Position numbers and translations under genes: made by a program
Shown: positions 10,003 to 50,470 of the stretch, in pieces
Position numbering within the stretch: position 1 is the stretch's first letter
Layout: every line of letters begins with the position of its first letter
Notes under the pieces: model-generated
What the model saw: the letters and a program-made list of their open reading frames with translations, nothing else
Told to the model about the DNA's origin: nothing
The model's database searches: none
Source: Nanobdellota archaeon
Lineage (GTDB): Archaea; Nanobdellota; Nanobdellia; Pacearchaeales; GW2011-AR1
NCBI GenBank assembly: GCA_039714095.1
Contig: JBDLJZ010000001.1
Span: forward strand, 1 to 55,093
DNA length: 55,093 bases
Direction of reading: 5' to 3'

Positions 10003-10407
10003 ATGCAACAAGTAATCTATCTTAAAGAAAATTCTGATAGTATAAAGAATGCCAAAACAATCTTTGATAATATAAGTAAAATCAAAGTAGATTACGAACA
10101 AGAAAACTTTTTAGTTTTCTTCTTAGATACGAGATTAGAAATAATTGACACAGAGGTTTTATTCAAAGGTGGATTAAACTCTTGTTTGATAGACCCCAAA
10201 ACAATTTTTAGAAAAGCTTTGTTGAAAAATTCAGCTGCAATTATTGTTTCGCATAATCATCCAAGTAGAAATTTAAGCCCATCAAGTGAAGACATAGAAA
10301 GTTTTAACGAATTGAAAAAGATTGGCGAATTATTAGATTTAAGTGTTTTAGATAGTATTATCTTTGATGAAAATAAATATTACTCTCTTTCTGAAAATGA
10401 TAATTAA
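10003..10407 (+). CDS. RadC-like JAB/MPN domain protein
   Basis: IIVSHNHPSRNLSPSSEDI matches the JAMM-like HxHPSG...S.xD signature of RadC/DUF2466. ATG at 10003 is preceded by GGAGAG. The track start at 9997 is a TTG. Confidence 0.8.
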   Translation: MQQVIYLKENSDSIKNAKTIFDNISKIKVDYEQENFLVFFLDTRLEIIDTEVLFKGGLNSCLIDPKTIFRKALLKNSAAIIVSHNHPSRNLSPSSEDIESFNELKKIGELLDLSVLDSIIFDENKYYSLSENDN

Positions 10408-11092
10408 AACTTACAAAGAATTAGAGTTCTTCTTAAAAATGTTCAGAAATGGAAATGCGGAGCTTCTGATAGTCGAATCAAGGGGTGGATTAGGAAAATC
10501 AAGGCTTACAGAAAAAATGCTTAAGGATAAGGTTTACTTAAGAATTTTAAGCCATATAACGCCAATGCAATTTTATATTTTAGGATATAAATTTAAGGAC
10601 TTGCCTATTGTTATAGATGATTGTGATGGGCTTTTATCTAATGACCAGAATATTTCTTTGTTGAAAATGTTTTGCGAAACAAGGGAAACTAAAAGAGTTA
10701 GTTGGCTTAGTACAACAGGGGCTCTCAAAGAACAAGGAGTTCCAATGAATTATGAAACGCAATCCAAGGTTTTAATTTTGACTAATGATTTTCAAAATTT
10801 ATCTAAAAAAGTAGGTGCATTACAAGACAGAGGTTGGCACATCTCATTTGATCCCACACATAAGGAAATATTAAATCGAATTAAACAAATAAAGAAATTT
10901 TGCAGTTTAAATTTATCTGAGAATGAAATCAATGAAGTCTATGATTTAATTGAGAAATATTCTTCTGTTGGTCAATTTAGCCTTAGAACTTTTGTAAAAG
11001 GATTATTTTTGTATAAAGAATGTAAAAATACTGAGACTAATTGGAAAGAAATTTTATTGCAAGAAATGAAAGTTAATTCTAAATTATTTTGA
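10397..11092 (+). CDS. P-loop NTPase, plasmid or virus-like
   Basis: Walker A-like ESRGGLGKSRL and Walker B-like LPIVIDDCD. ATG at 10397 overlaps the RadC stop by 11 nt. The longer track start at 10364 would overlap more. Confidence 0.5.
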   Translation: MIIKTYKELEFFLKMFRNGNAELLIVESRGGLGKSRLTEKMLKDKVYLRILSHITPMQFYILGYKFKDLPIVIDDCDGLLSNDQNISLLKMFCETRETKRVSWLSTTGALKEQGVPMNYETQSKVLILTNDFQNLSKKVGALQDRGWHISFDPTHKEILNRIKQIKKFCSLNLSENEINEVYDLIEKYSSVGQFSLRTFVKGLFLYKECKNTETNWKEILLQEMKVNSKLF

Positions 11093-11362
11093 TTTGTCTA
11101 ATTTTTCAATATCATTTAACAAACTCTTGCCTTTTGTAGAAATTTTATAGAATCTTATGAGCTTTTGCTTTGGATTTAAACATTCAGCAAAACCTTTTTT
11201 GACTAATTCATTTAAGGTTCTACTGACAGAATTAAAATGTAAACCTGTTTCATCTTTTAGCTGTGTTGGAGTTTTTGGATTTCCAAGCAATTTTAGGATA
11301 TTTTTTCTATGTTTACTCCCCAAAATATAACTAATGTTTTCCCAACTACCTTCTTTTTTCAT
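11084..11362 (-). CDS. winged helix-turn-helix transcriptional regulator (ArsR-like)
   Basis: HRKNILKLLGNPKTPTQLKDETGLHFNSVSRTLNELVKKGF is a typical wHTH. Start trimmed to MKKEGSW at 11362 because the upstream 21 codons are Cys/Phe-rich, low-complexity sequence. Confidence 0.65.
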   Translation of the reverse strand: MKKEGSWENISYILGSKHRKNILKLLGNPKTPTQLKDETGLHFNSVSRTLNELVKKGFAECLNPKQKLIRFYKISTKGKSLLNDIEKLDKSK

Positions 11363-11462
11363 AAAAACAAAAATACAACAATAATTAAAAGCAAATCCAA
11401 CATCAATCCAACAACTATAACACAAAACTTATAAGTCTGAAAGAATTAATTTATTTAATAAA

Positions 11463-11603
11463 ATGGGTAAGCTCTTTGATTATTGTATGACAGGGGATTG
11501 GGAAGAAACGCAAAGAATAGCATTATATAAAAAGTTGGGCAAGAAATTGGATGATTTATCTCCTGAACAGCTAAAAAAGATTAAAAAAATAATGAATGAA
11601 TAA
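11463..11603 (+). CDS. small hypothetical protein (46 aa)
   Basis: Hand translation gives MGKLFDYCMTGDWEETQRIALYKKLGKKLDDLSPEQLKKIKKIMNE. No motif. Confidence 0.25.
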   Translation: MGKLFDYCMTGDWEETQRIALYKKLGKKLDDLSPEQLKKIKKIMNE

Positions 11604-14637: not shown

Positions 14638-14794
14638 CGCCCCAACCGGGAGTTGAACCCGGGTTTCTTGCGTTCTGCACATTTTCACCTTCTCTCGCGT
14701 TAGCGAGCATATTTAGGAAGGTTGACGGTCAAGGAAACCTATGTTTCCTTACCTGCACGACAGGCAAGTGTCTTAGCCGTTGGACAATTGAGGC
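14638..14794 (-). tRNA. tRNA-Asp(GUC) with an 85-nt intron at the canonical 37/38 position
   Basis: Hand-folded. Acceptor GCCUCAA/UUGGGGC, discriminator G. D arm GUCC..AGAC with GG in the loop. Anticodon stem CUUGC/GCAAG, loop CU-GUC-G|intron|C. T arm CCGGG-UUCAACU-CCCGG. Exons 14794-14758 and 14672-14638. The BHB has a central helix CUGU/GCAG flanked by 3-nt bulges. Confidence 0.85.
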
Positions 14795-15395: not shown

Positions 15396-16659
15396 TTTTC
15401 TTCTTACTATTCATATAAGGTTGTAAAACTTTCGGAATATTTATGCTTCCGTCTTTATTTTGATTATTCTCTAAAATAGCAACCATAATTCTAGAAGTTG
15501 CAATTACTGTATTATTTAATGTGTGCGCAAAATATCTCTTCCCTTTATTTTCAATCTTAATATTCAAACGTCTTGCTTGCGACTCTTCCATGTTTGTTAA
15601 GGAAGTAATTTCTTTGTATTCATTTTGACGAGGACTCCAAACTTCTAAATCACACGACTTTGCTTTTAAATTTGCCAAATCTCCTGAGCAACATTCCAAA
15701 ACCCTAAAAGGTAAATCTAATTTCTTAAATAAATCAACAGAATATCTAAGCATTTTATCATACCATTTATATGATTCTTTTGGCTCGCAAATAACAATCA
15801 TTTCTTGCTTGTTAAATTGGTGCGTTCTAAAAATTCCTTTCTCATCAATTCCATGTGAACCAATTTCTTTTCTAAAACACATAGAATAACCTGTCTGCAA
15901 AATAGGCAAATCTTTTTCAGAAAAAGTTTTATTCATAAATTGTCCAATTAAAGTATGCTCTGAGGTTGCAATTAAATACAAATCCCCTCCTTCAATCTTA
16001 TAAGACATTTCATCAATTTCTTCATTAGAATAAACTCCTCGCAAAATATCACCACGAATCATCAACGGAGGCTCAACATATAAAAAATTTTTTTCAACCA
16101 TAAAATCTCTTGCAAAATTAATTAACGCCACATTCAGTAATGCTAAATCTCCTTTAAGATAATAAAATCCTTTTCCAGAAACTTTAGCAGAATCATCAAA
16201 ATCTAAAATTCCTAATTTCTCTCCTAATTCAACATGACTCAAAACTTTGAAATCAAATTTTTTTATTTTACCAAATTTTTTAATCTCAACATTCTCAGAA
16301 TCGTCTTTTCCAATAGGAACTGACTCATGCATAATGTTTGGGATTTTAAACATAATTTCTTTAATTTTCCTCTCTAACTTTTTTCTTTTCTCTTGAACCT
16401 TTTCAATCTTAGTAGGAATTTCCTTTGCACTTTTTAATTCCTTTTCAACCTTTTTTCCAGATTTCTTCAATTCACTAATTTTCTTAGAAATTTTATTTCT
16501 ATCACCTCTCAAGTTGTCTTCATCAAATTTCAACTTCCTCCATTCCTCATCCAGCTTTTTAACTTCATCAACCAGTTTCAATTTATCATTCTGAAATTTT
16601 TTCTTAATATTTTCCTTAACTAAATCAGGATTTTTACGAATCAAATTAATATCAATCAT
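15370..16659 (-). CDS. serS: seryl-tRNA synthetase
   Basis: N-terminal coiled-coil arm starting MIDINLIRKNPDLVKENI. Class II motif 2 FRKEIGSHGIDEKGIFRTHQFNKQE. C-terminal GSINIPKVLQPYM. Confidence 0.95.
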   Translation of the reverse strand: MIDINLIRKNPDLVKENIKKKFQNDKLKLVDEVKKLDEEWRKLKFDEDNLRGDRNKISKKISELKKSGKKVEKELKSAKEIPTKIEKVQEKRKKLERKIKEIMFKIPNIMHESVPIGKDDSENVEIKKFGKIKKFDFKVLSHVELGEKLGILDFDDSAKVSGKGFYYLKGDLALLNVALINFARDFMVEKNFLYVEPPLMIRGDILRGVYSNEEIDEMSYKIEGGDLYLIATSEHTLIGQFMNKTFSEKDLPILQTGYSMCFRKEIGSHGIDEKGIFRTHQFNKQEMIVICEPKESYKWYDKMLRYSVDLFKKLDLPFRVLECCSGDLANLKAKSCDLEVWSPRQNEYKEITSLTNMEESQARRLNIKIENKGKRYFAHTLNNTVIATSRIMVAILENNQNKDGSINIPKVLQPYMNSKKKIEKKKQTR

Positions 16660-16971
16660 AAATTAATTTTACAAAACCAACTATTTAAAAATTTTGGAAA
16701 AATAATCCTGAAAGGCGAGTGTAACAATAATTACGAGTATAAAGATTTTTTAAAAAAAATCTGCAATAAATTAATTTTACAAAACCAACTATTTAAAAAT
16801 TTTGGAAAATTAATCTTAGAAAGGTGAGCATCTTCTGAAATTTCTAATAAATGAGCGAAAAAATTAAAAGTGAATTTAAAGAAGATTTCACGGAGTGCGA
16901 ATAGAGCGTTTCAATAATTACGAGTATAAAGATTTTTTAAAAAAAATCTGCAATAAATTAATTTTACAAAA
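16660..16971. repeat. duplicated intergenic promoter-region repeats
   Basis: A 42-nt unit aaattaattttacaaaaccaactatttaaaaattttggaaaa occurs at 16660-16701 and 16768-16809. A 60-nt unit caataattacgagtataaagattttttaaaaaaaatctgcaataaattaattttacaaaa occurs at 16725-16784 and 16912-16971. Each copy of the 60-nt unit contains the palindrome AGATTTTTTAAAAAAAATCT. Confidence 0.85.
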
Positions 16972-17028
16972 ATACTCTATTTAAATTTAATCAAAAAAAT
17001 ATATAAACTTATTTTAACAATTTAATTT

Positions 17029-18372: not shown

Positions 18373-18484
18373 ATAATTATAATTAAATAAATATATTTTT
18401 TGTTTTCTTTTTTTAAATTCTTAAGGCACAAAAAGGTTTTTAAACTATTTTTATGATTGATTGTTAACTAAATGATTGCCTCCT

Positions 18485-18569
18485 ATGTGGTATCAGTTGG
18501 ACTGCACGAAAAGATACCACCTTCAATGCTTAGAGGAAGTTTAAGCGAAGAACCAGGAGGTATCCTCAC
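18485..18569 (+). promoter_or_regulatory. unclassified structured RNA leader, copy A (upstream of rps10)
   Basis: 8-bp helix GUGGUAUC(18487-18494)/GAUACCAC(18513-18520) encloses an 18-nt loop AGUUGGACUGCACGAAAA. A second stem CUUC/GAAG follows. Then comes a purine-rich GGAGG box in a small hairpin 10 nt before the ATG. Homologous copies lie at 49371-49546. Confidence 0.65.
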
Positions 18570-18878
18570 ATGCCAAAAGTAAGAATAAAATTAAATAGTA
18601 CTGACATAGAAATGCTTAATAATATTTGCGAAACTATTAAAGATATTGCAAAAAAATCAGGAATTACAATCTCAGGACCTGTTCCACTACCAACAAAAAA
18701 ATTAAAAGTCACAACACGAAAATCACCTTGTGGAGACGGAACAGCAACTTTTGATAGATTTGAAATGAGAATACACAAAAGGTTAATTGATTTACCTGCA
18801 AACGAAAAAGTTTTGCACCAAATTATGAAACTTCAAATTCCAAAGAACGTTAACATAAAAATTGAAGTAAAAGAGTAA
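18570..18878 (+). CDS. rps10: 30S ribosomal protein uS10
   Basis: RIKLNSTDIEMLNNICETIKDIAKKSGITISGPVPLPTKKLKVTTRKSPCGDGTATFDRFEMRIHKRLID is the typical archaeal S10 sequence. Confidence 0.95.
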   Translation: MPKVRIKLNSTDIEMLNNICETIKDIAKKSGITISGPVPLPTKKLKVTTRKSPCGDGTATFDRFEMRIHKRLIDLPANEKVLHQIMKLQIPKNVNIKIEVKE

Positions 18879-18965: not shown

Positions 18966-21092
18966 ATGGAAGAGGAATGGCCAATTTACAAAAAAGAACT
19001 TCTGATTTTAGGAAATCAAAATAGTAATGTTAGTATATGTACGCTTTGGACTCCCAAAGAAAATGTCTTAAGAAAAATTTCTAAAAATAATTTTTTAATT
19101 ACTGGACAATGTTATAGCAAAAGTGAAGGTCCAAGTTTAATTTTAAGACATGCTTTATTAAATAAGAAATTAAGATATATTATTCTTTATGGAGCAAATG
19201 TAAATAAAACTGCAGAAATTTTATTAGCAATAAAAAATATGGGTGTAGATGAAAATCATAAAGTTATAGGATTTTCAGATGCTGAAATAGAAAAAGAAAT
19301 CACTTTAGATGCAATAAATAGATTTAGACAAAATGTAGAAATAATTGATAAGAGAGATTTAGAATTAGAAGAATTAAATAATTTTATTGAATCATTGCCC
19401 AAAAAAGAATCTTGGGGAGAACCAGAATTATTTCCTAGAATCCCTCCTAAAAAACCAGAATTCTTTCCTTCAGAGGAAACAGGGTTTGTAATTAGAGGAA
19501 AAACTGTTGGGAATGTGTGGTTAGAGATTTTACAAACTATAAGAAAATTTGGTAAAATAAAAAAGAGCCAGTATTCAGATGACCAACAAGAAATAGTTAA
19601 TCTAACAAGTATAATTACTGATGAAGATCCAAATAATCTAAGTTGGGAAGAATGGTTTCAATTTTCTAAAGAACATTTTCAAGAATATTTACCGCAATTG
19701 ATGACATCTGATTTAATTGGGGATGTTGAATATACTTATGGTTCTCGTTTAAGAAATTTTAAAGGAATTAATCAAATAGAATCAATTATTGAAGAATTAA
19801 AAAAAGCAATATACTCAAGAAGGGCTGTTGGCGTAACATGGGATATAGAAAAAGATCATAATAATTCTCACTGTCCATGTTTGGATTTAATTCAACCATT
19901 AGTACAAGATAAATTACATATGACAGTCTATTTGAGAAGTAATGATATGTTTAAAGCATATCCAGAAAATGCCTTGGCTTTACGAATGATTCAAAATGAA
20001 ATTGCGCAAAAAGTAGGAGTCGCATTAGGGTCATTAATTATAATTTCTAATAGTGCTCATATTTATTCTTCAGATTGGGAAAAAGTAAAGAATATTTTAG
20101 AACAATATTCAATAAAACAAACTAGACAATCTGATCCTCGTGGGAATATTCTTATAGAAACAGAAAACAAAAAAATAAAAATTATTCATCAATCTCCTGA
20201 AGGTGTTGGTATAGATGAAATTTATGCAGAGAACTCTTTAGATGCTTGTTCTAAAATAAATGCAAAAAAAATGATTTCCCAAATAAATCATTCTTTAGAT
20301 ATTGGAGGGGAAATCGCAAAAGCAGAAATTGCCATTAAAAATAATCTGAAGTATGTTCAAGATAAGCCTTTAGAGATAAGAAAAAAAGGAAAGATAATTT
20401 TAGTTGAAGGAACAGATTGTTCAGGCAAACAAACTCAAACAGAATTATTATTAAAAAAACTAAACAGCGAAGGAATTCCTTGCAAATTAATGAGTTTCCC
20501 TCGTTATAATACCCCAACTGGAAGAATTGTTGGACAAAGTTATCTGGGGAAAGTAAAAGATTATTGGAAGGGAGATTCTGGATGGTTTGGAGAAGCTGAT
20601 TCATTAGATCCAAAAATTGCTTCATTATATTATGCAGCAGATAGAAGAGCTTCTGTTGAAGAAATAGACAAAATTTTAGATTCAGGTTGTAATTTAATTT
20701 TAGATAGATATTATACATCTAATATGGCTCATCAAGGTGGAAAAATAAAAAATATAGAAGAAAGAAAAAAAATATTTGAATGGTTGCAAAATTTAGAATT
20801 AGATATTTTAAAATTACCAAAAGAAGACATTGCGATATTTTTACATATGCCTTTAGAAGTTTCAAAAATATTACGGACAAATAGAACTGGAGAAAATTTA
20901 GATAACCATGAAAATAATGAAGAGCATTTGAGAAGAGCAGAAGAAACCTATAACCAGTTATCAGAATTATACAATTGGAAAAATATTAGTTGTGCTCCAA
21001 ATAAAACAATTGAATCTCTCAAAACACCAGAAGAAATTCATGAAGAAGTTTACAGTGTTGTAAAAGATTTCCTAACACAAAACAAATCTTAA
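18966..21092 (+). CDS. multidomain fusion: MtrA-like N-terminal domain, thymidylate synthase (ThyA)-like, DUF4346-like, thymidylate kinase
   Basis: ThyA-like HCPCLDLIQP and YLRSNDMFKAYPENALAL...ISNSAHIYS. DUF4346-like DPRGNILIE...HSLDIGGEIAKAEIAIKNNLKYVQDKPL. Tmk P-loop ILVEGTDCSGKQTQ plus MSFPRY. N-terminal WPIYKKELLILGNQNSNVSICTLWT resembles MtrA-like domains (recollection). Confidence 0.75.
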   Translation: MEEEWPIYKKELLILGNQNSNVSICTLWTPKENVLRKISKNNFLITGQCYSKSEGPSLILRHALLNKKLRYIILYGANVNKTAEILLAIKNMGVDENHKVIGFSDAEIEKEITLDAINRFRQNVEIIDKRDLELEELNNFIESLPKKESWGEPELFPRIPPKKPEFFPSEETGFVIRGKTVGNVWLEILQTIRKFGKIKKSQYSDDQQEIVNLTSIITDEDPNNLSWEEWFQFSKEHFQEYLPQLMTSDLIGDVEYTYGSRLRNFKGINQIESIIEELKKAIYSRRAVGVTWDIEKDHNNSHCPCLDLIQPLVQDKLHMTVYLRSNDMFKAYPENALALRMIQNEIAQKVGVALGSLIIISNSAHIYSSDWEKVKNILEQYSIKQTRQSDPRGNILIETENKKIKIIHQSPEGVGIDEIYAENSLDACSKINAKKMISQINHSLDIGGEIAKAEIAIKNNLKYVQDKPLEIRKKGKIILVEGTDCSGKQTQTELLLKKLNSEGIPCKLMSFPRYNTPTGRIVGQSYLGKVKDYWKGDSGWFGEADSLDPKIASLYYAADRRASVEEIDKILDSGCNLILDRYYTSNMAHQGGKIKNIEERKKIFEWLQNLELDILKLPKEDIAIFLHMPLEVSKILRTNRTGENLDNHENNEEHLRRAEETYNQLSELYNWKNISCAPNKTIESLKTPEEIHEEVYSVVKDFLTQNKS

Positions 21093-29743: not shown

Positions 29744-30490
29744 TTAAATTATCTTGTAAACAGCAGTTACTCTCGCACTAACTTCTTTTTCACCAGGTTG
29801 AATACTTGAAACAGCTTCTTTTGCCAAACCCACGTCCCCCTCTGTAACTCCTGATGAAGAATACAATCTCCATGGATAATATCCAAAGTCATTCACATTT
29901 ACAGAAACTAACTTGCCAACTTTTTTATCAAATCCTATTGCCACTGACTCTGCCTTTGTCTTTGCGTCCTCTGCTGCAAGTTTTATAGCTTCAGCTTTAT
30001 ACTTATTTTGAGATTCCTGACTTAACTCAAAATTAATATAACTTATCCCTGCTCCAGCATCTACCCCAGCATCTATAATCTTGCCCAATTTATCTGTTTC
30101 TTCAGAATCAACCATGACTTTTATTGAATGAATTGCTTTAAAGCCTTTATCAATTCTCTTACCTTCAGTCCAATCATAATCTGGATAAATGTTATAATTC
30201 TCAGTTATAATATCTTCTCTTCCAAATCCTTGATTCCCAAGCGTTGCAACAAGTTTTTCCAATATATCAGAATTAGCATCTTTTGCTTCAGAACTTGTGT
30301 TTCCTTTTGTTTCAATATTAAAATAAACTCCAATTTCATCAGGCATTGCTTTTACAATCGCCATACCCTCCACACTAACAGTGTTCTCTGAACTCACAGG
30401 TTTAAACATAAATAATGCTGACAAAGCTATAATTAAAACTACTGCTGAAACAATCGCTGTTATTGTTATTGTTGTGTTTTGTTTTTTCAT
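29744..30490 (-). CDS. SIMPL/DUF541 (BP26-like) secreted protein
   Basis: N-terminal TM/signal, then VSVEGMAIVKAMPDEIGVYFNIETKG and a C-terminal EVSARVTAVYKI pattern typical of DUF541. Confidence 0.7.
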   Translation of the reverse strand: MKKQNTTITITAIVSAVVLIIALSALFMFKPVSSENTVSVEGMAIVKAMPDEIGVYFNIETKGNTSSEAKDANSDILEKLVATLGNQGFGREDIITENYNIYPDYDWTEGKRIDKGFKAIHSIKVMVDSEETDKLGKIIDAGVDAGAGISYINFELSQESQNKYKAEAIKLAAEDAKTKAESVAIGFDKKVGKLVSVNVNDFGYYPWRLYSSSGVTEGDVGLAKEAVSSIQPGEKEVSARVTAVYKII

Positions 30491-36738: not shown

Positions 36739-36884
36739 TCCACCCACCCAGATTCGAACTGGGGATCTCCCGGGTACTGCTATGTAACCGAGCTGACTTT
36801 TAGGGTTTCATTTAATTTCCAAATGGAATATCCGCCTTAGTAATAAACTACAGCCAGGCGCTCTAACCGCTGAGCTATGGGTGG
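36739..36884 (-). tRNA. tRNA-Tyr(GUA) with a 73-nt intron at position 37/38
   Basis: Hand-folded. Acceptor CCACCCA/UGGGUGG with the archaeal/eukaryal Tyr identity pair C1-G72, discriminator A. D arm GCUC-AGCGGUUA-GAGC. Anticodon stem CCUGG/CCGGG, loop CU-GUA-G|intron|C. T arm CCCAG-UUCGAAU-CUGGG. Exons 36884-36848 and 36774-36739. Confidence 0.85.
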
Positions 36885-40725: not shown

Positions 40726-43700
40726 ATGAAAAAAATAAATACCAAAGAAATAATCCTAATATCAATCATTATATTAGCAATTCCTTTGTTTTTAACTATG
40801 GTTAAAGCTGGTACTGATGGTCCCCCACAATTTACTGTTAATCCTAATGATAGCCCAGATCCAGTAGAGGAAGGAAATACTGTCACATTTACAGCTACTG
40901 CAGAAGATCCTAAAAGTGATGACTGGTATTTAGCAATATGTAAGACTAATGAGATTACTGATGGCACTCCTCCAACTTGTAATGGTGGAGCCTATTGTGT
41001 ATCAGGTGCTACTGCTCATGCTGCGCAAGCTAGTTGTGGTTGGACATCAGATGTTTCTGGAGCTTGGTATGGTTTTCCTTGTGATGGTCAGGAGGGTTGT
41101 GGCACAATGGTTAATACAAATAGTCCAATAACTGTTACTTCAAATACTGCTCCTGATATAACTGGCACTGTTTCTAATGATGGGCCTAAAGACGAAGCCC
41201 AAACTATTACTTTTACAGGCGCTTGTACAGATGCAGATGGCGGAGACCTTTTTCATTTAGTTGTATGTCAAGGAGGAACAACTTGTAATGATGCTACTAG
41301 TGGGGCAGATTTAATATGCAAAGGAACTTCTGCAACAGATACAACACCAAGTTGTAGTTATGTTACGACATCTGGTGACGTTGGTATCAACACAGGAGAT
41401 ATAGCTACTTGTTGCGACGACAGCGGTGATTGCGATGCAACTACAGTAAGTGTAAATGACTGGACAGTGAATGATATAACTCCACCAGGATTTGAAGATG
41501 CACAAGTAAATGAAAGCATAATCGGTTTGAACCAGTATGCGCGATTTAAAATTAATGTTACAGATTCTTCATCAAATATTAGTTATACTAATGGAACAAT
41601 AGAAGGAACAACATACAGTTTCAGCGACGAGGACGGGCAAACAGGCAAAACAGGATTCTGGTATTATGATTGGCAATGTACTTCAAGTAATTCAGCAGTT
41701 GATTTTACTTATGCAGGGGCTAATGACACTGTCGGAAATTGGAACTCAACTACAATAACAGGAATTAATACAGAATGTGATGCTACTGCTCCAAGTTTAA
41801 GTAATGAAGGAGCAAATGAAACAACAATTAATGAAAATTCATATTTTTGTTTAAACATAACTGTAAGTGATACAGAAGGAAATTTAGATGCAGTTTATGC
41901 AGAAGTTTGGGACACTTCATCTTGGGCAAATTATACAATGTCAGACGCTGGTTCGACATCTTGTGATGGAGGTTCTGCAGATGGTATTTATGGTTTAGAA
42001 TTTCAGGGAACTTCTCAAGGAATTTGGAATTTCAGTAGAGCATATGCAAATGATAGCGTAAATAATTTAAACACTTACGACTTTACTGATTTAACTATAA
42101 ATGTAACAGCTCCCTCAGATTCTGAATATCCACAATTTTCTAACTTCCAAGAATATCTCTCAAATAATTCTGATTATTCTTATGGACAAACATATCAATT
42201 TAATACAACTGTGACCAACATAAATGGAACTGTTTTTTTAGAATTTAATGGAACAAATTATTCTGCATTAAATGACACTACAGATAATTTTTATGTGGAT
42301 TTTAGTTCTTTATCTGCAGGAACTTATTCTTATTATTGGGGGGGTTATGGAAATGGAACAAGCGAGCTTTACAATATTTCAGGAATAAGAAGTTATGTTG
42401 TAAAAAAAATAAATCCAACAGGAAGTCTTACAAATACAGACGCGTGGTCAATAACTTATCCAGAAGAAGTTACAATAGGTTTAAGTGAATCAAATAGTGG
42501 AGACACAGATGTGACTTATAAAATTTATAGAGACAACGTAGACAAAGGAACAGGCGAAACAATAACTCTTGGATACGGAACTTATGACTATATTTTAAAT
42601 ACAACAGGTGGAGCAAATTATACAGCCAATGAAAGCATAGAGTCACAAACATTCACAGTTAATCAGAATACTGGGGCATGTAGTGTTTTATTTAATGAAA
42701 CCTCTCCTATAAATTATTCGTCCACATTCAAAGTCTGGACAAACTGTAATTCTGATTTTACATTATATAGAAATGGCACAGCAATAAGCAACAACTCTGT
42801 TCAAGATTTAGCTGCAGGAGGTTATAATTTTACAGTCATAAGAACAGACAAATCAAATTATTCTATAATTTCTGATGAGCAAATTTTCACAGTTCAAAAA
42901 GCAGAAGGATTAATTTATACTTATATTAATAATCAAAGAAGTAATCAATCTATACTGGTAAATAATGAAAAATGGTTAAATGCAACACTTATTACAGGTG
43001 TTGGAGATATTACATTATATTATAACGATACAATAATAAATCAAGGAACAAGCCCACTTTCAAATCTAACAAATTTCGCAGATGAAGGAGTTTTCAATAT
43101 TACTGGAATTTATTTGGGCAATGAAAATTATACATCTGCATCAGAAACTTGGTGGGCTACTGTAAGTTCAGATTCAGCACCAACAATAAATCTTGTTTAT
43201 CCTCAAAATATAAATTATAATACTAATGTAAGTGAATTAAATTATACTGTTTCAGATGATATAGCTTTGGATATTTGTTGGTATTCAACAAATAGTGGTA
43301 TAACAAATACTACAATAACTTGTGGAAATAATGTAACTAATTTAAATTCTATAGAAGGTTCTAACACTTGGACTGTTTGGGCGAATGATTCAATTGGACA
43401 GGAAAGTTCAGATAGTGCAACTTTTTTTAAAGATACTATTTATCCAACAGTAACAAGTTTAACAGAATCTCCTTCAGACCCCACTACATATTCTTTAGGA
43501 GCAACTTATGAATTTAATGCCACAATTACAGACACAAATTTAGAAACAGTTTTAATTGAATTTGATGGAACAAATTATACGCCTTCAAATTTAGGAGATG
43601 TTTACAACTTTTCTATTTCAGATTTATCTGCAGGAGTTTATAATTATAAATGGTTTGTTAACGACACAACTAATAATATTAATCTTACAGAGATTCAAAC

Positions 43701-46700
43701 ATATACAATAAATAATGCAACAGGAGATGTGACCCTATTAATAAATGGTTCTGCATCAGACCAAACAATAACCTATGGAATTCAAACAAATGCAAGTTCA
43801 ACAACTTCATACGGAAGTGTTACAATTTATAGAAATGGTATTGATGTTACAGGAGAAAACAATAATTTTGTGACTTTGGGAGTTGGATATTATAATTATA
43901 CATCTGTTTCTTCAGGAGACCAAAATCATAGTTCAATTTCAGTAACGAGATTTGTAAATATAACAAGAGCAAACAGCGAGGTAAATTTAAGTTTAAATGG
44001 AACAGAAGAAAATATCACAATTACACAAGATAGTTCTATATTATTAAATGGAACTTTAATAACAGGAGATTTAGGAGCAACATTAAAATTATACAATGAT
44101 GGAATCCTTATCAATCAAGGAACAACCGAAGTAAGCAATCAAACCACATTCAATACAGTTGGTTTTTTTAATATAACTGTATATTATATAGAAAGTCAAA
44201 ATTATACTTATTCGTCTGAAACTTTTTGGGTTAATGTAACAGAAGCTCCTGACTTAACTAATCCGAGTGTAACTTTATTAACCGAAAATCCAACAGACCC
44301 TACAAATTATTCACCTGGAGCAACTTATGAATTTAATGTAACAATTACTGATAACAGAGAAATTGATTTAGTGTTTATTGAATTTGATGGAACAAATTAT
44401 ACACCAAGTAATTTAAGTGATGTTTATAATTTTACAATTTCTGGTCTATCTGTAGGAACTTATTCTTATTACTGGTTCGCAAATGATACTTCTGGAAATG
44501 TAAATAATACACAAAATAGAACTTATACAATAAATCAGAAAATACCTTCTTTAAATTTAACAATCACTCCTTTGCAATCAGAAACTTATGGTATAGAAAC
44601 AATAGCGACGGGAAGCGATTGTCCTGCTGAACTAACTTGCAATTTATATAGAGAACATATTTTGGTTGATAACTCAGACACGCAAACACTGGGGGTTGCT
44701 GTTTATAATTACACTTACAACACAACAGGGAATGTAAATTATTCTGCTACTTCAATAAGCAAGTTGCTGACTATCACGCAGGCTTCAAGTTCTGTTTACA
44801 CTTATTTAGATAATTCAAGGAGTAATAAATCAATAAATAATAATACTGCAATTTGGTTAAATGGAACTTTAGTGACAGGTTCGGGAAATATTAAAATTTA
44901 TAATAATGGGACATTAATCAATTCAGGAACTTCTCTTCTTTCAAATTATACTTTATTTGACCAAGTTGGATTATATAATATTACAACTATTTATGAAGGA
45001 AATGAAAATTATACTTCTTCGTCTGAAACTTGGTGGGTTGATGTTCTTGCAGTTGATTTAATTAATCCAAATGTCGTTATAATTTATCCTCAAAATATTT
45101 CTTATAATTCAATTCAAACAGAATTAAATTACTCTGTTTTTGATAATCAAGATTTGGATTCTTGTTGGTATTCAATTGACAAAGGAATTACAAACAATAC
45201 TATTAATTGTGGGGAGAATATAACTGGATTAAATTCAAATCAAGGAAGCAATACTTGGATAGTGTGGGCAAATGACACAAATGAAAATGAAAATTCAAGT
45301 TCAATTGTATTTTTTGTTGATAGTATTTTTCCGACAATAGATTTTGTTGCTCCTACAAAAACAAGTAACTCACCAACTATTGAAAATTTGATTGAAATAA
45401 ATATAAGTGCAAATGATACGAATTTAGATACTATTGTTATTAGGTTATATAATTCTACACACGATTTAATAAAAGCCAATTTCTCAATAAACAGTTTATT
45501 TTTTATTAATTATACTGGATTACCTGCAGGAATTTATTATTACAATGCCACTGTAAATGATACTTTAAATAATCAAAACTCAACTGAAACAAGAGCAATT
45601 AATTTAATTCTTCCCTCGCTAACAATCTATAAACCAAAAAACAAAACTTATGTTGCAAACACTTCTCTTTTATTAGATTATTCTGCAACCAATACAGATA
45701 CAGTATGGTATAATATTGATTCTGTACAAAATATAACTATAGATTCTGACACATATTTTAATACTTCTGGGGGAAGCCACACACTTTATCTTTATGCAAA
45801 TAACAGCAACGGAGTTATATCAAAAAATGTAACTTTCTTTATCAATTTAACTCAATTTGAAATAGGCTATAGTGAATGGGAAAGCTCTTACAAAGGCAAC
45901 TCAACAAATTTTAATGAATATCCTTTTGATGAAATACAAAATTTAAGCAATGTTATTTTAGAAAATACTTTACATGGGAAAATACTTTTTAATGAAGCTA
46001 TTAATTTAACTGACGATGAAAACCCTGCTGATAACCAAATAGATATTGATAGTTATATAAATATTTCAGATAATAAAATAGAAATAAATTCAACAGGTTT
46101 ACCTAATTTTAATAAATCTGCAACACTTTATTTTTATAATTTAACTTTTTCTAATCCAAGGATTTTAAGAGATGGAGATATTTGTCCTTCAACAATCTGT
46201 ACACTAAATAATTATTTAAATGGAAATTTAGATTTTAATGTAACCCATTTTACAATTTATTCTACAGAAGAAACTCCTTTGACACAAGTGGTTGTTTCTA
46301 CTGGAGGGGGTGGCGGAAGAGCAGGGGATGGAGGAGTTTCTATTAAAGATTATGAATGTTTCAATGATAGTGAATGCAAAGACAAAGATGAAGTGTGTTT
46401 AAATCATTTGTGTGTAAAACTATTTGACATAAAAATAATTGATTTTGAATCTCCAGCAAAATTAGGAGAATTTTTTGATTTTACTTATTTTATAAAAGGT
46501 ATGGCAAATATTAGTGGGGATGTTGAAATTAATTTTTGGATTGGAGATGGAGAAGAAATTTTAACCTCAGGTTCTGATGTGATTTATTTAGGAAATTTTG
46601 AAGAAAAAACAGAAACCACAAAAATATTTTTACCTAAAAGTGTTAAATCAGGAGTTTATGAATTTTTTGTTGAAGTATATCATGAAAGATATAAAGCAAG

Positions 46701-47304
46701 ATCCCATCGGACTATTGAAATAGAGGTAGAAGGCGGAATTGCAAAGATAATCTCTATTGAAGATAAAAGCATTAAGAATTATATAATTTTCATCTTGATT
46801 TGTGTAATTATTTTTAGTTTAATTACATTTTATTTTATAAGAAAAAATAAAAGAGCAAAAATTACTTCAGAAGAATTAATTGAGGATATTAAAAAACAAG
46901 ATGAACAGAAACCAAAAATAAAATTAGTGTATCCAAAACAAAAATATAAACCTGAAGAAAAAGGAAGTTTACAAATATCAAAGAAAAAATTTATAGAACA
47001 AAAATATAAATTAGAAAAAAAAGAAAATTTACAAATTCCTCAAAAGAAATTTGCAGAACAAATTGTTAAAAGAGTGAAAAAAGAAATTCCTTCGCAACCT
47101 GAAAAAATCCAAGAAATAAATAATAAAAAACAAAAGAAAATAATTCCTCAAATTAAAAAAGAATCTACAAATACAATTGAGAATACAGAAAAACGAACTT
47201 TTCTAAGAAGTCCAATAAAAAGGATTGTAAAAAAATTATCAAGAAAAAAAAGAAATATAGATGATATGAAAGAAATGTTTGAAGAAAAACCAAAAGTAGA
47301 ATAA
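40726..47304 (+). CDS. giant (2192 aa) repeat-rich surface protein with a C-terminal TM anchor and Lys-rich tail
   Basis: Signal/TM N-terminus. Module LEFNGTNYS/IEFDGTNYTPSNL appears three times. Module YPQNI.YN...ELNY.V.D...D.CWYS...GITN.TI.CG.N.T.LNS..GSNTW.VWAND appears twice. Very dense N-x-S/T sequons. TM segment YIIFILICVIIFSLITFYFI, then a K-rich tail. Confidence 0.9.
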   Translation: MKKINTKEIILISIIILAIPLFLTMVKAGTDGPPQFTVNPNDSPDPVEEGNTVTFTATAEDPKSDDWYLAICKTNEITDGTPPTCNGGAYCVSGATAHAAQASCGWTSDVSGAWYGFPCDGQEGCGTMVNTNSPITVTSNTAPDITGTVSNDGPKDEAQTITFTGACTDADGGDLFHLVVCQGGTTCNDATSGADLICKGTSATDTTPSCSYVTTSGDVGINTGDIATCCDDSGDCDATTVSVNDWTVNDITPPGFEDAQVNESIIGLNQYARFKINVTDSSSNISYTNGTIEGTTYSFSDEDGQTGKTGFWYYDWQCTSSNSAVDFTYAGANDTVGNWNSTTITGINTECDATAPSLSNEGANETTINENSYFCLNITVSDTEGNLDAVYAEVWDTSSWANYTMSDAGSTSCDGGSADGIYGLEFQGTSQGIWNFSRAYANDSVNNLNTYDFTDLTINVTAPSDSEYPQFSNFQEYLSNNSDYSYGQTYQFNTTVTNINGTVFLEFNGTNYSALNDTTDNFYVDFSSLSAGTYSYYWGGYGNGTSELYNISGIRSYVVKKINPTGSLTNTDAWSITYPEEVTIGLSESNSGDTDVTYKIYRDNVDKGTGETITLGYGTYDYILNTTGGANYTANESIESQTFTVNQNTGACSVLFNETSPINYSSTFKVWTNCNSDFTLYRNGTAISNNSVQDLAAGGYNFTVIRTDKSNYSIISDEQIFTVQKAEGLIYTYINNQRSNQSILVNNEKWLNATLITGVGDITLYYNDTIINQGTSPLSNLTNFADEGVFNITGIYLGNENYTSASETWWATVSSDSAPTINLVYPQNINYNTNVSELNYTVSDDIALDICWYSTNSGITNTTITCGNNVTNLNSIEGSNTWTVWANDSIGQESSDSATFFKDTIYPTVTSLTESPSDPTTYSLGATYEFNATITDTNLETVLIEFDGTNYTPSNLGDVYNFSISDLSAGVYNYKWFVNDTTNNINLTEIQTYTINNATGDVTLLINGSASDQTITYGIQTNASSTTSYGSVTIYRNGIDVTGENNNFVTLGVGYYNYTSVSSGDQNHSSISVTRFVNITRANSEVNLSLNGTEENITITQDSSILLNGTLITGDLGATLKLYNDGILINQGTTEVSNQTTFNTVGFFNITVYYIESQNYTYSSETFWVNVTEAPDLTNPSVTLLTENPTDPTNYSPGATYEFNVTITDNREIDLVFIEFDGTNYTPSNLSDVYNFTISGLSVGTYSYYWFANDTSGNVNNTQNRTYTINQKIPSLNLTITPLQSETYGIETIATGSDCPAELTCNLYREHILVDNSDTQTLGVAVYNYTYNTTGNVNYSATSISKLLTITQASSSVYTYLDNSRSNKSINNNTAIWLNGTLVTGSGNIKIYNNGTLINSGTSLLSNYTLFDQVGLYNITTIYEGNENYTSSSETWWVDVLAVDLINPNVVIIYPQNISYNSIQTELNYSVFDNQDLDSCWYSIDKGITNNTINCGENITGLNSNQGSNTWIVWANDTNENENSSSIVFFVDSIFPTIDFVAPTKTSNSPTIENLIEINISANDTNLDTIVIRLYNSTHDLIKANFSINSLFFINYTGLPAGIYYYNATVNDTLNNQNSTETRAINLILPSLTIYKPKNKTYVANTSLLLDYSATNTDTVWYNIDSVQNITIDSDTYFNTSGGSHTLYLYANNSNGVISKNVTFFINLTQFEIGYSEWESSYKGNSTNFNEYPFDEIQNLSNVILENTLHGKILFNEAINLTDDENPADNQIDIDSYINISDNKIEINSTGLPNFNKSATLYFYNLTFSNPRILRDGDICPSTICTLNNYLNGNLDFNVTHFTIYSTEETPLTQVVVSTGGGGGRAGDGGVSIKDYECFNDSECKDKDEVCLNHLCVKLFDIKIIDFESPAKLGEFFDFTYFIKGMANISGDVEINFWIGDGEEILTSGSDVIYLGNFEEKTETTKIFLPKSVKSGVYEFFVEVYHERYKARSHRTIEIEVEGGIAKIISIEDKSIKNYIIFILICVIIFSLITFYFIRKNKRAKITSEELIEDIKKQDEQKPKIKLVYPKQKYKPEEKGSLQISKKKFIEQKYKLEKKENLQIPQKKFAEQIVKRVKKEIPSQPEKIQEINNKKQKKIIPQIKKESTNTIENTEKRTFLRSPIKRIVKKLSRKKRNIDDMKEMFEEKPKVE

Positions 47305-48734: not shown

Positions 48735-49262
48735 TTATTTATGATAAGCTAATCGCACAGCTTCTGTACAAGTTTCTTCTAGTGTAGAAAATAATTTTTT
48801 ATCTGGTGTATCAATTTGCAAATCAAATTCAATTGTGCGAATTTCAGAAAATTTGCCATCACTTCCAACACAAAAATGAATAGAATTATTATGTTTATAA
48901 TTTGTCATCCATTGGCCTATTTCAATTCTTGTCATTGCTCCGTAAACCTTTTCGCAATTATGCTTCTCTTCTCCAGGTAACCAAAATAAAATTGCTCCTG
49001 TTTTGGATGCAATATCTAAGTAGTGTCTTTCCCACGCTCTCTGTCTTGGAAAGTAATTTACATCACCTTTTATAATATACTGAGAAATTTTATCCCTAAT
49101 TCCTCTTCTTGGAGAAACAACAACTAAATTAGAATTTTGCGAAAATAAATAATTTATGGCTTTGTCTTGCCAGTTTGGAGCATTCTTTATAGGACCAGCT
49201 AAAAAAATTAATGGTTCTGCTATATTTTGAATATAATCTTTTGGAATAATCACCTTTCCCAT
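48735..49262 (-). CDS. nucleoside 2-deoxyribosyltransferase-like (Rcl/DNPH1-like fold) protein, putative
   Basis: IFLAGPIKNAPNWQDKAINYL and MTRIEIGQW resemble the YLAGP...E signature of the family. Assignment is tentative. Confidence 0.35.
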   Translation of the reverse strand: MGKVIIPKDYIQNIAEPLIFLAGPIKNAPNWQDKAINYLFSQNSNLVVVSPRRGIRDKISQYIIKGDVNYFPRQRAWERHYLDIASKTGAILFWLPGEEKHNCEKVYGAMTRIEIGQWMTNYKHNNSIHFCVGSDGKFSEIRTIEFDLQIDTPDKKLFSTLEETCTEAVRLAYHK

Positions 49263-49370
49263 AATAAATTAATTTTTGAAGAATATATAAATATTTGTTT
49301 CCTATTATTTTTTCACAACAAACTTTATAACTCTTCTTTTTCTAAAATTTCAATGGTGATGATTAACTTT

Positions 49371-49460
49371 ATGCTATATCCGTTGGATTGCACAAAAAGA
49401 AGTTGTCCTTCAATGAAGAGTGGAAGGTTACACGAAGGAAATCAGAAGGTATCCTCCTCT
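49371..49460 (+). promoter_or_regulatory. unclassified structured RNA leader, copy B (first of tandem pair)
   Basis: Helix GCUAUAUC(49373-49380)/GAAGUUGU(49399-49406) has 6 of 8 pairs. It encloses the 18-nt loop CGUUGGAUUGCACAAAAA. Stem CCUUC(49407-11)/GAAGG(49423-27). GAAGG box plus UAUCCUCC at the 3' end. Confidence 0.6.
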
Positions 49461-49546
49461 ATGCGACGTCAATCGGATTGCACAAAAAGATGTTGCCCTT
49501 CCATGCTTAGAGGAAGGAGCACGAGGAAAACAGAGGGTTTCCTCGT
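49461..49546 (+). promoter_or_regulatory. unclassified structured RNA leader, copy C (directly upstream of the Cas4-like nuclease ATG)
   Basis: Helix GCGACGUC(49463-49470)/GAUGUUGC(49489-49496) encloses the loop AAUCGGAUUGCACAAAAA. Stem CCUUCC(49497-502)/GGAAGG(49512-517). GAGGG-UUU-CCUC hairpin ends 2 nt before the ATG at 49547. Confidence 0.65.
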
Positions 49547-50470
49547 ATGGTGATGATTTATTCGCATTCTCGTTTAAGTACCTTTGAACAATGTCCTTTC
49601 AAATTTAAATTAAGATATATTGATAATGTTAAGCCTGAAATAGAAACAAGCATTGAAGCACATCTTGGAAGTGTAGTTCATAATACATTAGAATGGCTTT
49701 ACATTGAAGTACAAAAAAGAAATCTTCCAATAATAGAAGAAGTAATAAAATATTATTCTGAAAACTGGGAACAAATTTACAAACCAGGAACGATTATAGT
49801 TCGTAAAAATTTAACAACTAAAGATTATTTCAATAAGGGAGTTAAATTTCTTCTTGATTATTATATGAAACATCAACCATTTCAAGATGGAACTTTAGAG
49901 CTTGAAAAAAAAATCCTTCTTGATTTAGACGGAACCGGCAAATATAAAATTCAGGGATTTATTGATAGATTAATTTTCAATAAAGAAACAAATGAATACG
50001 AAGTTCATGATTATAAAACAGCAAATTCTTTGCCAACAGAAGAAAAAGTAGCTACTGATAGACAACTTGCTTTGTACTCAATTGCAATAAAAGAAATATA
50101 TGGACAGCATTATAATGTTTTATTGACTTGGCATTATCTTGCACATAACATAAAAATCTGCTCACGACGAACAACAAATCAATTAGAACAATTAAAAAAA
50201 GATATAATAAATTTAATTGATAAAATAGAAGTAACAACAGAATTTCCTGCACAAAAATCTGTTCTTTGTGGTTGGTGTGAATTTAAATCAATGTGTCCGC
50301 GATTTGGAGGAGTTGTTGGAGAACGACAACACACGTTGGTGTATACTGACTCACTTCGTTCCCAGCACGAGAACCTGCAAGCAGGCCCCGATAAATTTTC
50401 AAAGAAAATTTCTACTGAGGGCAAAGGAATTAGTGAATATCCAATTTTGGGAAAGTATATTAGATATTAA
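49547..50470 (+). CDS. Cas4/RecB-like PD-(D/E)xK nuclease with Fe-S cysteines and an unusual C-terminal extension
   Basis: YSHSRLSTFEQCPFKFKLRYI N-terminus. GFIDRL...YEVHDYKT (D...ExK variant D-x-K). C-terminal CGWCEFKSMC. About 50 extra residues follow, encoded by a locally GC-rich segment. Confidence 0.8.
   Translation: MVMIYSHSRLSTFEQCPFKFKLRYIDNVKPEIETSIEAHLGSVVHNTLEWLYIEVQKRNLPIIEEVIKYYSENWEQIYKPGTIIVRKNLTTKDYFNKGVKFLLDYYMKHQPFQDGTLELEKKILLDLDGTGKYKIQGFIDRLIFNKETNEYEVHDYKTANSLPTEEKVATDRQLALYSIAIKEIYGQHYNVLLTWHYLAHNIKICSRRTTNQLEQLKKDIINLIDKIEVTTEFPAQKSVLCGWCEFKSMCPRFGGVVGERQHTLVYTDSLRSQHENLQAGPDKFSKKISTEGKGISEYPILGKYIRY

Follow-up and report, generated by a model that had tools for sequence, protein, structure and literature searches.

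Structured RNA leader repeats that abut start codons in DPANN archaea, with a tandem pair in front of a Cas4-like nuclease gene

What, if anything, does a structured RNA leader gain from being present twice? A 55,093-nucleotide (nt) stretch of the metagenome-assembled genome of a Nanobdellota archaeon (GenBank contig JBDLJZ010000001.1, hereafter the window) carries two copies of one structured motif, B and C, in front of the gene for a PD-(D/E)XK (Cas4-like) nuclease, and a third copy, A, in front of rps10, which encodes ribosomal protein S10. The initial annotation took B (90 nt) and C (86 nt), lying head to tail at 49371-49546, for a tandem sensor with cooperative or two-input control, and saw in the shared use of the element before rps10 and the nuclease gene the hint of a common signal. 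The arrangement and the sharing are borne out here; the sensor and the common signal are not. On the sequence comparisons made, the copies are members of a previously undescribed family, whose structured RNA leader repeats occur in Pacearchaeota/Woesearchaeota-like DPANN archaea, and full-text searches of the literature found no comparable element. We hold with moderate confidence that the repeat is a duplicative cis-acting RNA leader cassette that would turn a leaderless gene into one led by a Shine-Dalgarno (SD) sequence, with initiation possibly coupled to an upstream open reading frame (ORF). The tandem state of B and C would then be best read as a by-product of duplication in which only the gene-proximal unit stays intact, and not as a cooperative sensor. 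To our knowledge, very few cis-acting structured mRNA leaders have been described in archaea, and we know of none reported for DPANN.

A covariance model of the element, built from five copies, was run over the window. It gave three matches only, copy C at 116 bits, copy A at 109 bits and copy B at 62 bits; the next best score was 13 bits, and the three are far above chance. The same element is therefore present ahead of both rps10 and the nuclease gene. B and C also form a direct-repeat family (D14), with 77% identity across 61 nt at a spacing of 90 nt. C had been described as ending 2 nt before the nuclease ATG. This is right for its last P4 base pair, at 49545, which is followed by one spacer base and the ATG at 49547, and not for an end at 49546, which abuts the ATG. 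The B match spans model positions 23-89 only, and on its own B folds no better than shuffled sequences (z +0.7); the corresponding value for A is z = -3.35.

The unit is about 85 nt long, or about 110 nt when its 5' extension is counted, and contains three consecutive hairpins, P2, P3 and P4, as judged from 14 distinct copies. This three-hairpin fold is the minimum free energy structure of the intact copies, C among them, and leaves the AUG mostly unpaired. P2 has 8 bp, is 97% paired and shows compensatory double changes at five of its eight pairs, against 41-58% pairing in slid controls; examples of the stem are GUGGUAUC/GAUACCAC, GCGACGUC/GAUGUUGC, GCGAUAUC/GAUAUCGC, GUGCUAUC/GAUAGUAC, GCAACUUC/GAAGUUGC and GCGAUUUC/GAAAUCGC, and A and C alone are separated by three compensatory pair differences. 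The P2 loop, GGAYUGCACRAAAAG (GGAUUGCAC), is alike in A, B and C and of unrelated sequence in other members, where its length brings the family range to 16-66 nt. One copy outside the window (such loci and genomes are given L numbers), L070 in front of herA, has a 48-nt insertion (10046-10093) inside this loop, with the P2 stem and the 3' half intact. The 3' half, consisting of P3, P4 and an SD-like G-run, is near-invariant across the family, and the stems P3 (CCUUC/GAAGG) and P4 (CGAGGA(AA)/(UU)UCCUCG) are almost invariant in sequence. In the rps10 copy of L074, P4 reads GAAAA/UUUUC in place of GAGGA/UCCUC, and these two G-C to A-U double changes support P4 as a helix.

The G-run lies within the P4 loop and the first bases of the P4 3' strand. 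It ends 7-9 nt before the AUG, which itself follows P4 by 1-2 nt. Copy A has GGAGGU there and copy C AGAGGGU, other copies having AAGGGGU or GGGGUG. The 3' end of archaeal 16S rRNA is CCUCC, so the G-run is plausibly a Shine-Dalgarno sequence. Two alternative pairings can be drawn, one in which ACC(C)UU(C), an anti-SD-like stretch where P2 meets P3, binds the SD, the other a hairpin between the P3 loop and the P3-P4 linker (alt-P3), and these are 93% and 89% paired across the copies. A closing helix, P1, between a 5' pyrimidine run and the SD seemed to covary in A, C and L029 and was given up, as it is not kept in L061, L062 and L065; in arrays, its 5' pyrimidine run is the P4 3' strand of the preceding unit. 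With Rfam 15 the window has no match to the element at the gathering score, and at E<=10 the A and B-C regions gave only chance matches to snoRNA, miRNA and lncRNA.

It might be supposed that the repeat encodes a leader peptide or small Cys-rich protein (LDCTKR.CPSM), since B and C are open in one frame (60-66 codons) and the coding strand has only about half the expected number of stop trinucleotides. We give this virtually no weight, and the sequences exclude a conserved peptide. The Cys-rich frame is shifted in A by a 1-nt deletion; the initial annotation had this deletion right, and likewise the two silent DCTKR codon differences. In L029 the frame begins with ACG instead, and in L050 a TGA interrupts it. 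The frames that stay open differ among loci, a single L060 ORF reads successive units in all three frames, and the family as a whole does not retain the DCTKR residues. With P2 paired and compensated as described, the earlier argument from the window that selection acts on the RNA, and not on a peptide, is supported. That each copy starts with ATG is true inside the window and fails elsewhere, where ACG (L029), GTG (L050), TTG or TAG stands in its place.

How far the family extends was examined by two routes. The DNA pattern TGCACNAAAAGAN{4,8}CCTTCNATG, built on the P2 loop and thus on the least conserved part of the element, was run on 185,579 species genomes and on JGI metagenomes. It gave 22 and 28 matches, respectively, about the chance level, with one true copy in each collection; these are L029, in a Woesearchaeota metagenome-assembled genome before a KH-domain gene, and L050, which is cut by a contig end. 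A three-frame translation of the element was also used as a protein profile against predicted-protein collections, a route that relies on ORFs having been called across the repeat. This yielded about 20 further loci, and the covariance model confirmed those with retrievable DNA at 49-95 bits; across confirmed family copies overall the scores are 49-127 bits. About 26 loci are known in total, from DPANN metagenomes. Matches were few among 1.8 billion representative proteins, and viral contigs gave none, the core pattern GAGGAAGGAGCNCGAGGAAAA included.

The genes behind the element include those for ribosomal proteins S10 (the window and L074), S17e, L44e and L37ae, a KRR1/PNO1-like KH protein, HerA, Mre11-Rad50, the PD-(D/E)XK nuclease, a PC4-like protein and several unknowns. 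All sequenced copies except the L060 array are co-oriented with the gene and end in ..CCUCNN-ATG, 1-2 nt before the ATG and nearly always 2 nt before it. A copy located between two genes is entered directly by the ORF of a DUF167 protein. HerA is associated with the element in two lineages, from a marine TARA and a JGI sample. The two HerA orthologues are 74% identical in protein and the 3' half of the element differs at 3 of 57 nt, so it is kept at 95% identity, which argues for selection at the level of the host. Conservation of the 3' half exceeds that of the coding sequence beside it. The element precedes ribosomal protein genes and DNA end-resection genes (herA, mre11-rad50 and the Cas4-like nuclease) with a 3' half more conserved than the proteins behind it.

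Public gene calls have been misled by the repeats, as in an 'S10' of 138 or 114 aa and an 'L44e' of 140 aa (P0014, P0025, P0130), and the HerA call of L070 (gene 10110-11480) has been extended upstream into the element. In practice, gene callers working across such repeats produce spurious N-terminal extensions as well as small ORFs that are not real.

The window has a GC content of 28%. For nearly all of its genes the TATA box ends 21-24 nt ahead of the ATG, which makes the genome leaderless in style. SD-like motifs before real starts are rare in the window; the convincing SD-led starts are those of the two element-bearing genes and of the gene at 29744-30490 (-), with AAGGAGGTTAAAATG at 30490(-). 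Each element locus has an ATG where a leaderless start would be, then the element or elements, then the real ATG. It is a natural experiment in how a leaderless gene copes with a long structured leader between its promoter and its start codon.

Relatives provide the same promoter without the element. In L002-L009, whose S10 proteins are 91-98% identical to that of the window, the identical BRE/TATA string aaaaaggtttttaaac precedes rps10, with the ATG placed 21 nt beyond the TATA box and no element present. L074, a more distant relative (83% nt identity in rps10), has a diverged orthologous copy ahead of rps10, in the order TATA, 21 nt, ATGCC, element and ATGCCAAAAG. As the element is absent from close relatives and present as a diverged copy in L074, it must have been both gained and lost at rps10, and its loss appears to have restored the leaderless layout exactly. 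A PC4-like gene likewise has the element in L062 and lacks it in the window, L002 and L004. The S10 proteins closest to that of the window are labelled Pacearchaeota.

The frame that begins at the would-be leaderless start is often open. At the nuclease gene it is open through both B and C, with a chance of 0.028 by dinucleotide shuffles, and its peptide is not conserved in the family. At rps10 the ORF from 18472 reads through all of A to a stop 13 nt beyond the rps10 ATG. Upstream ORFs generally stop 1-13 nt past the main ATG or are fused to the gene in frame. The frame is open along the entire leader in A, B-C, L029 and L065/L073, all of which were found independently of it. For any one locus the chance of this is 0.03-0.3; combined over the four loci by Fisher's method it is about 0.02, which is suggestive and not proof.

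From these observations a mechanism may be proposed, in which SD use, coupling, gating and any regulation are what we infer. The unit would sit on the coding strand between the promoter-proximal AUG, at the leaderless-start site, and the real start codon, and would replace initiation that depends on the 5' end with SD-dependent initiation at an internal AUG. Initiation would probably be coupled to the upstream ORF, which would start at the old 5' AUG, cross the repeat or repeats and terminate at the main AUG or shortly beyond it. The anti-SD-like CCCUUC has two possible partners, GAAGG, with which it makes P3, and the SD, and would be a plausible on/off gate for an effector. The family would have spread, and been lost, by duplication and recombination.

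A stronger version, which we regard as possible and on balance doubtful, is a 'start-codon cassette': a mobile cis-element that inserts immediately behind the ATG of a leaderless gene, supplies an SD and ATG of its own at its end and is reversible by seamless loss. The gene would then stay expressed and move to initiation dependent on the SD and upstream ORF, and ribosomal protein and DNA end-resection genes of DPANN would have come under common RNA-level control. A mobile element that targets start codons would be a new route for regulatory RNA to spread between genes.

Several points weigh against the leader-cassette reading. SD-led starts are rare in the genome, and SD use is assumed. The covariation of the two alternative pairings is not significant, the observed values having been reached by 46-82 of 500 shuffles. 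SD presentation alone would leave the invariance of the P3 and P4 stems over about 55 nt unexplained. The L060 array (1-300) has at least three units with a 124-nt period, the last of them truncated and facing the 3' end of a convergent gene. A good many loci came to light by way of called ORFs, so the sample, of only about 26 loci, is biased towards open frames and in-frame fusions. Recombination between copies was first read from contigs of two assemblies, where L065 1-1930 and L073 5283-7215 are 100% identical over 1,853 nt and on through the first 77 nt of the element, beyond which they are unrelated, with an unknown gene after the element in one and L44e-S3Ae in the other. This was downgraded as proof, as identity up to a repeat is also expected from an assembly chimera; the break may reflect either recombination or a chimera at the repeat.

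The invariant 3' half could also be read as an operator, P3, P4 and the junction between them forming a sequence-specific site for a shared RNA-binding protein that co-regulates the translation of ribosomal protein and DNA-repair mRNAs. This is the most plausible of the rival explanations, ahead of the riboswitch and the selfish repeat, though in itself unlikely. Stems that stay invariant where covariation is allowed are a usual mark of recognition by protein or RNA. The genes behind the element are enriched in ribosomal and ribosome-linked ones (S10, S17e, L44e, L37ae and the KH protein), and the element has been retained before herA in two lineages. Yet the operator lacks a known candidate protein, few genes have been sampled, and the element is dispensable at rps10 and at the PC4 gene of close relatives. 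Neither a K-turn nor an rRNA-like motif was recognised. As for mimicry of rRNA in particular, the element precedes four ribosomal protein genes together with DNA-repair genes, and no partial rRNA match was found among the Rfam families at E<=10. A selfish or neutral repeat, resembling a miniature inverted-repeat transposable element (MITE) or a repetitive extragenic palindromic (REP) sequence or moved as a hairpin in single-stranded DNA, would survive only at start codons, where it is harmless because it brings its own SD and ATG, and its hairpins would serve mobility. Relatives that differ in its presence, with TATA-21 nt-ATG exactly restored, would follow from this, as would the tandem arrays and decayed copies, the L060 array away from any start codon, the homology of L065 and L073 stopping exactly at the 3' end of the repeat, and the short direct repeats of the first bases of the gene around the insert. 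These repeats are ATG, ATGCC, ATGGAA and 12 nt at the nuclease gene; with lengths of 3, 4, 5, 6 or 12 nt they are not a fixed-length target duplication, and terminal inverted repeats are lacking from the unit, which consists of three separate hairpins. No transposase was identified in the 55 kb, in which no search aimed at transposases was made, viral contigs are without matches, and there are only two loci in the 55 kb and few matches among the representative proteins. The orthologous retention before herA, at 95% identity in the 3' half, also speaks against neutrality, and we consider this explanation rather less probable than the operator. The element could be likened to a MITE in being dispersed (two loci in the window), duplicative and polymorphic among related genomes at rps10 and the PC4-like gene; it is not scattered at random positions, as copies other than L060 are co-oriented and at ATGs.

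The tandem riboswitch proposed for B and C, with each unit a ligand aptamer and a shared metabolite linking the rps10-thyA-tmk operon to the nuclease, would suit a structured, conserved and co-oriented leader with its SD within a helix-loop. The mutually exclusive pairings would be available as an expression platform, and conservation of the 3' half above that of neighbouring coding sequence would be expected. We nonetheless find it improbable. No Rfam class is matched at E<=10. Only P2 covaries strongly, and its loop is variable, the sequence shared by A, B and C not being conserved in the family and a 48-nt insertion being tolerated; what stays invariant is a pair of simple hairpins, small in their loops and not joined by a multi-helix junction. 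Intact pairs of aptamers are not what the arrays contain: B has P2 mismatches and a weak P4, the upstream units of L061, L062 and L066 are altered, and single-unit loci are common. The downstream genes are a mixed set (ribosomal proteins, DNA end-resection, unknowns) and not one pathway, and relatives run the same rps10-thymidylate operon, and have the PC4 gene, with the same promoter and no element. Cooperative or two-input sensing and a signal common to the rps10 operon and the nuclease therefore find no support, and the duplication by-product remains the preferred reading of B and C.

Many of the loci are tandem arrays, of two to at least three units; they are found in the window, L060, L061, L062, L066 and several loci known as ORFs only. 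Upstream units are decayed in the window (B) and, with deletions or insertions, in L061a, L062a and L066a. In the window, the exact 12-nt direct repeat ATGGTGATGATT brackets the whole B-C array, and target duplication and local duplication are both candidate origins. The extra spacer of the L060 array contains GTTTCGAATCC (tRNA T-loop-like) and a second AATCGGATT motif.

Comparison with known systems sharpens what is distinctive here. Like SD-sequestering riboswitches and RNA thermometers (preQ1, SAM-II, ROSE/fourU), the element is a cis-acting structured 5' leader with an SD in a helix-loop before the AUG and an anti-SD-like strand that has two alternative partners. It differs from them in having no Rfam match and no conserved junction or pocket, in a P2 loop that takes large insertions, in P3 and P4 stems that are invariant rather than covarying, in its presence or absence in close relatives and in its leaderless archaeal host. 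With tandem riboswitches (the glycine riboswitch, tandem aptamers) it shares two homologous structured units head to tail in one leader, whereas several of its arrays have a decayed upstream unit, the units number from 1 to at least 3 and the unit borders are start-codon-like triplets. Decay, varying number and such borders make the arrays look like duplication and not design.

Among mobile or dispersed repeats, REP sequences and bacterial interspersed mosaic elements (BIME), enterobacterial repetitive intergenic consensus (ERIC) sequences, the Correia elements of Neisseria and archaeal MITEs are similarly short, dispersed, duplicative, RNA-folding and strain-polymorphic, and can change the expression of an adjacent gene. 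The element is unlike them in its lack of terminal inverted repeats, single orientation relative to the gene, precise abutment of the start codon, own SD and low copy number. Rickettsia palindromic elements are also structured repeats tolerated in translated sequence, with few stops and ORFs that read through them. They lie inside coding genes and become part of the protein, however, whereas the present element occupies the very 5' end, with a new SD and ATG behind it. Hairpin elements derived from IS200/IS605 (palindrome-associated transposable elements) have subterminal hairpins and one orientation, insert after a short target (here ATG) while ending in the same triplet, and show seamless-looking loss; the ATG...ATG flanks would be compatible with that family. 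It is a resemblance only, as the P2 sequence varies, the flanking repeats are of 3-12 nt and no Y1 transposase was found, none having been searched for.

Other candidates were set aside. A K-turn or K-loop in P3 was judged by eye and rejected, the tandem mismatches being 5'-AG/3'-GA with no 3-nt bulge. An integron attC site would be a single long imperfect hairpin with R'/R'' core sites, and neither is present. A CRISPR array does not fit, since the units abut or, in the 124-nt form, the entire unit repeats including its 'spacer'. A self-cleaving ribozyme or tRNA-like processing signal that regenerates a leaderless mRNA was rejected for want of an Rfam ribozyme match or a cloverleaf, and is kept as a minor possibility.

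Table 1. Positions of the leader repeats and associated features in the window
Feature	Position	Strand	Remarks
TATA box TTTTTAAA	18437..18444	+	rps10 promoter
5' extension AACTAAATGATTGCCTCCT	18465..18484	+	Contains predicted transcript start and upstream AUG (18472); homologous to 5' extensions of L029 and L062a
Copy A	18485..18569	+	Directly before rps10 ATG; P2 18487-18494/18513-18520; P3 18520-18524/18536-18539; putative SD AGGAGGU 18555-18561
rps10 (ribosomal protein S10)	18570..18878	+	PF00338, E = 3e-31
TATA-box-like CTTTATAA	49324..49331	+	Putative nuclease promoter; ends 22 nt before ATG at 49353
12-mer ATGGTGATGATT	49353..49364	+	ATG at leaderless-start position, opens upstream ORF; exact repeat of nuclease start 49547-49558
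Upstream ORF, 66 codons	49353..49553	+	Runs through B and C; TGA overlaps nuclease ATGGTGA; within ORF 49227-49553
Copy B	49371..49460	+	90 nt; upstream, partly decayed unit; P2 49373-49380/49399-49406 with two mismatches
Copy B P3	49407-49411/49423-49427	+	P4 of copy B weak
Copy C	49461..49546	+	86 nt; intact unit; P2 49463-49470/49489-49496
Copy C P3	49497-49501/49513-49517	+	
Copy C P4	49522-49529/49538-49545	+	
SD-like AGAGGGU	49532..49538	+	In P4 loop of copy C, 8 nt 5' of AUG; other copies have GGAGGU, AAGGGGU or GGGGUG at the homologous site
PD-(D/E)XK (Cas4-like) nuclease gene	49547..50470	+	PF12705, E = 4.7e-34, residues 6-251; served by the B-C leader

The surroundings of the copies (Table 1) have features of their own. 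Upstream of B-C, on the opposite strand, is a nucleoside-deoxyribosyltransferase-like gene. The tail of the nuclease ORF past its Pfam domain (50300-50400, +) has about 49% GC, against 28% for the genome, with an unremarkable predicted fold and no Rfam match. Behind rps10, MtrA-like, pterin-binding, thymidylate synthase and thymidylate kinase domains are fused in a single ORF of 708 aa (18966-21092, +); the relative L002 has ThyX (Thy1) and a separate kinase there instead. A reverse-transcriptase (RVT_1) gene of L073 (3208-4245) lies about 3 kb from the element copy, with no link shown between them.

Elsewhere in the window, two tRNA genes of about 150 nt with long introns, at 36739-36884 (-) and 14638-14794 (-), were detected with Rfam at 50 and 41 bits and missed by ARAGORN. 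Intergenic direct repeats of 36-68 nt, AT-rich and promoter-like, are spaced 108 or 187 nt apart at 16650-16990. The ORF at 40726-47304 (+) encodes a surface-type protein of 2192 aa that is rich in N-glycosylation motifs and has internal repeats about 820-1900 nt apart.

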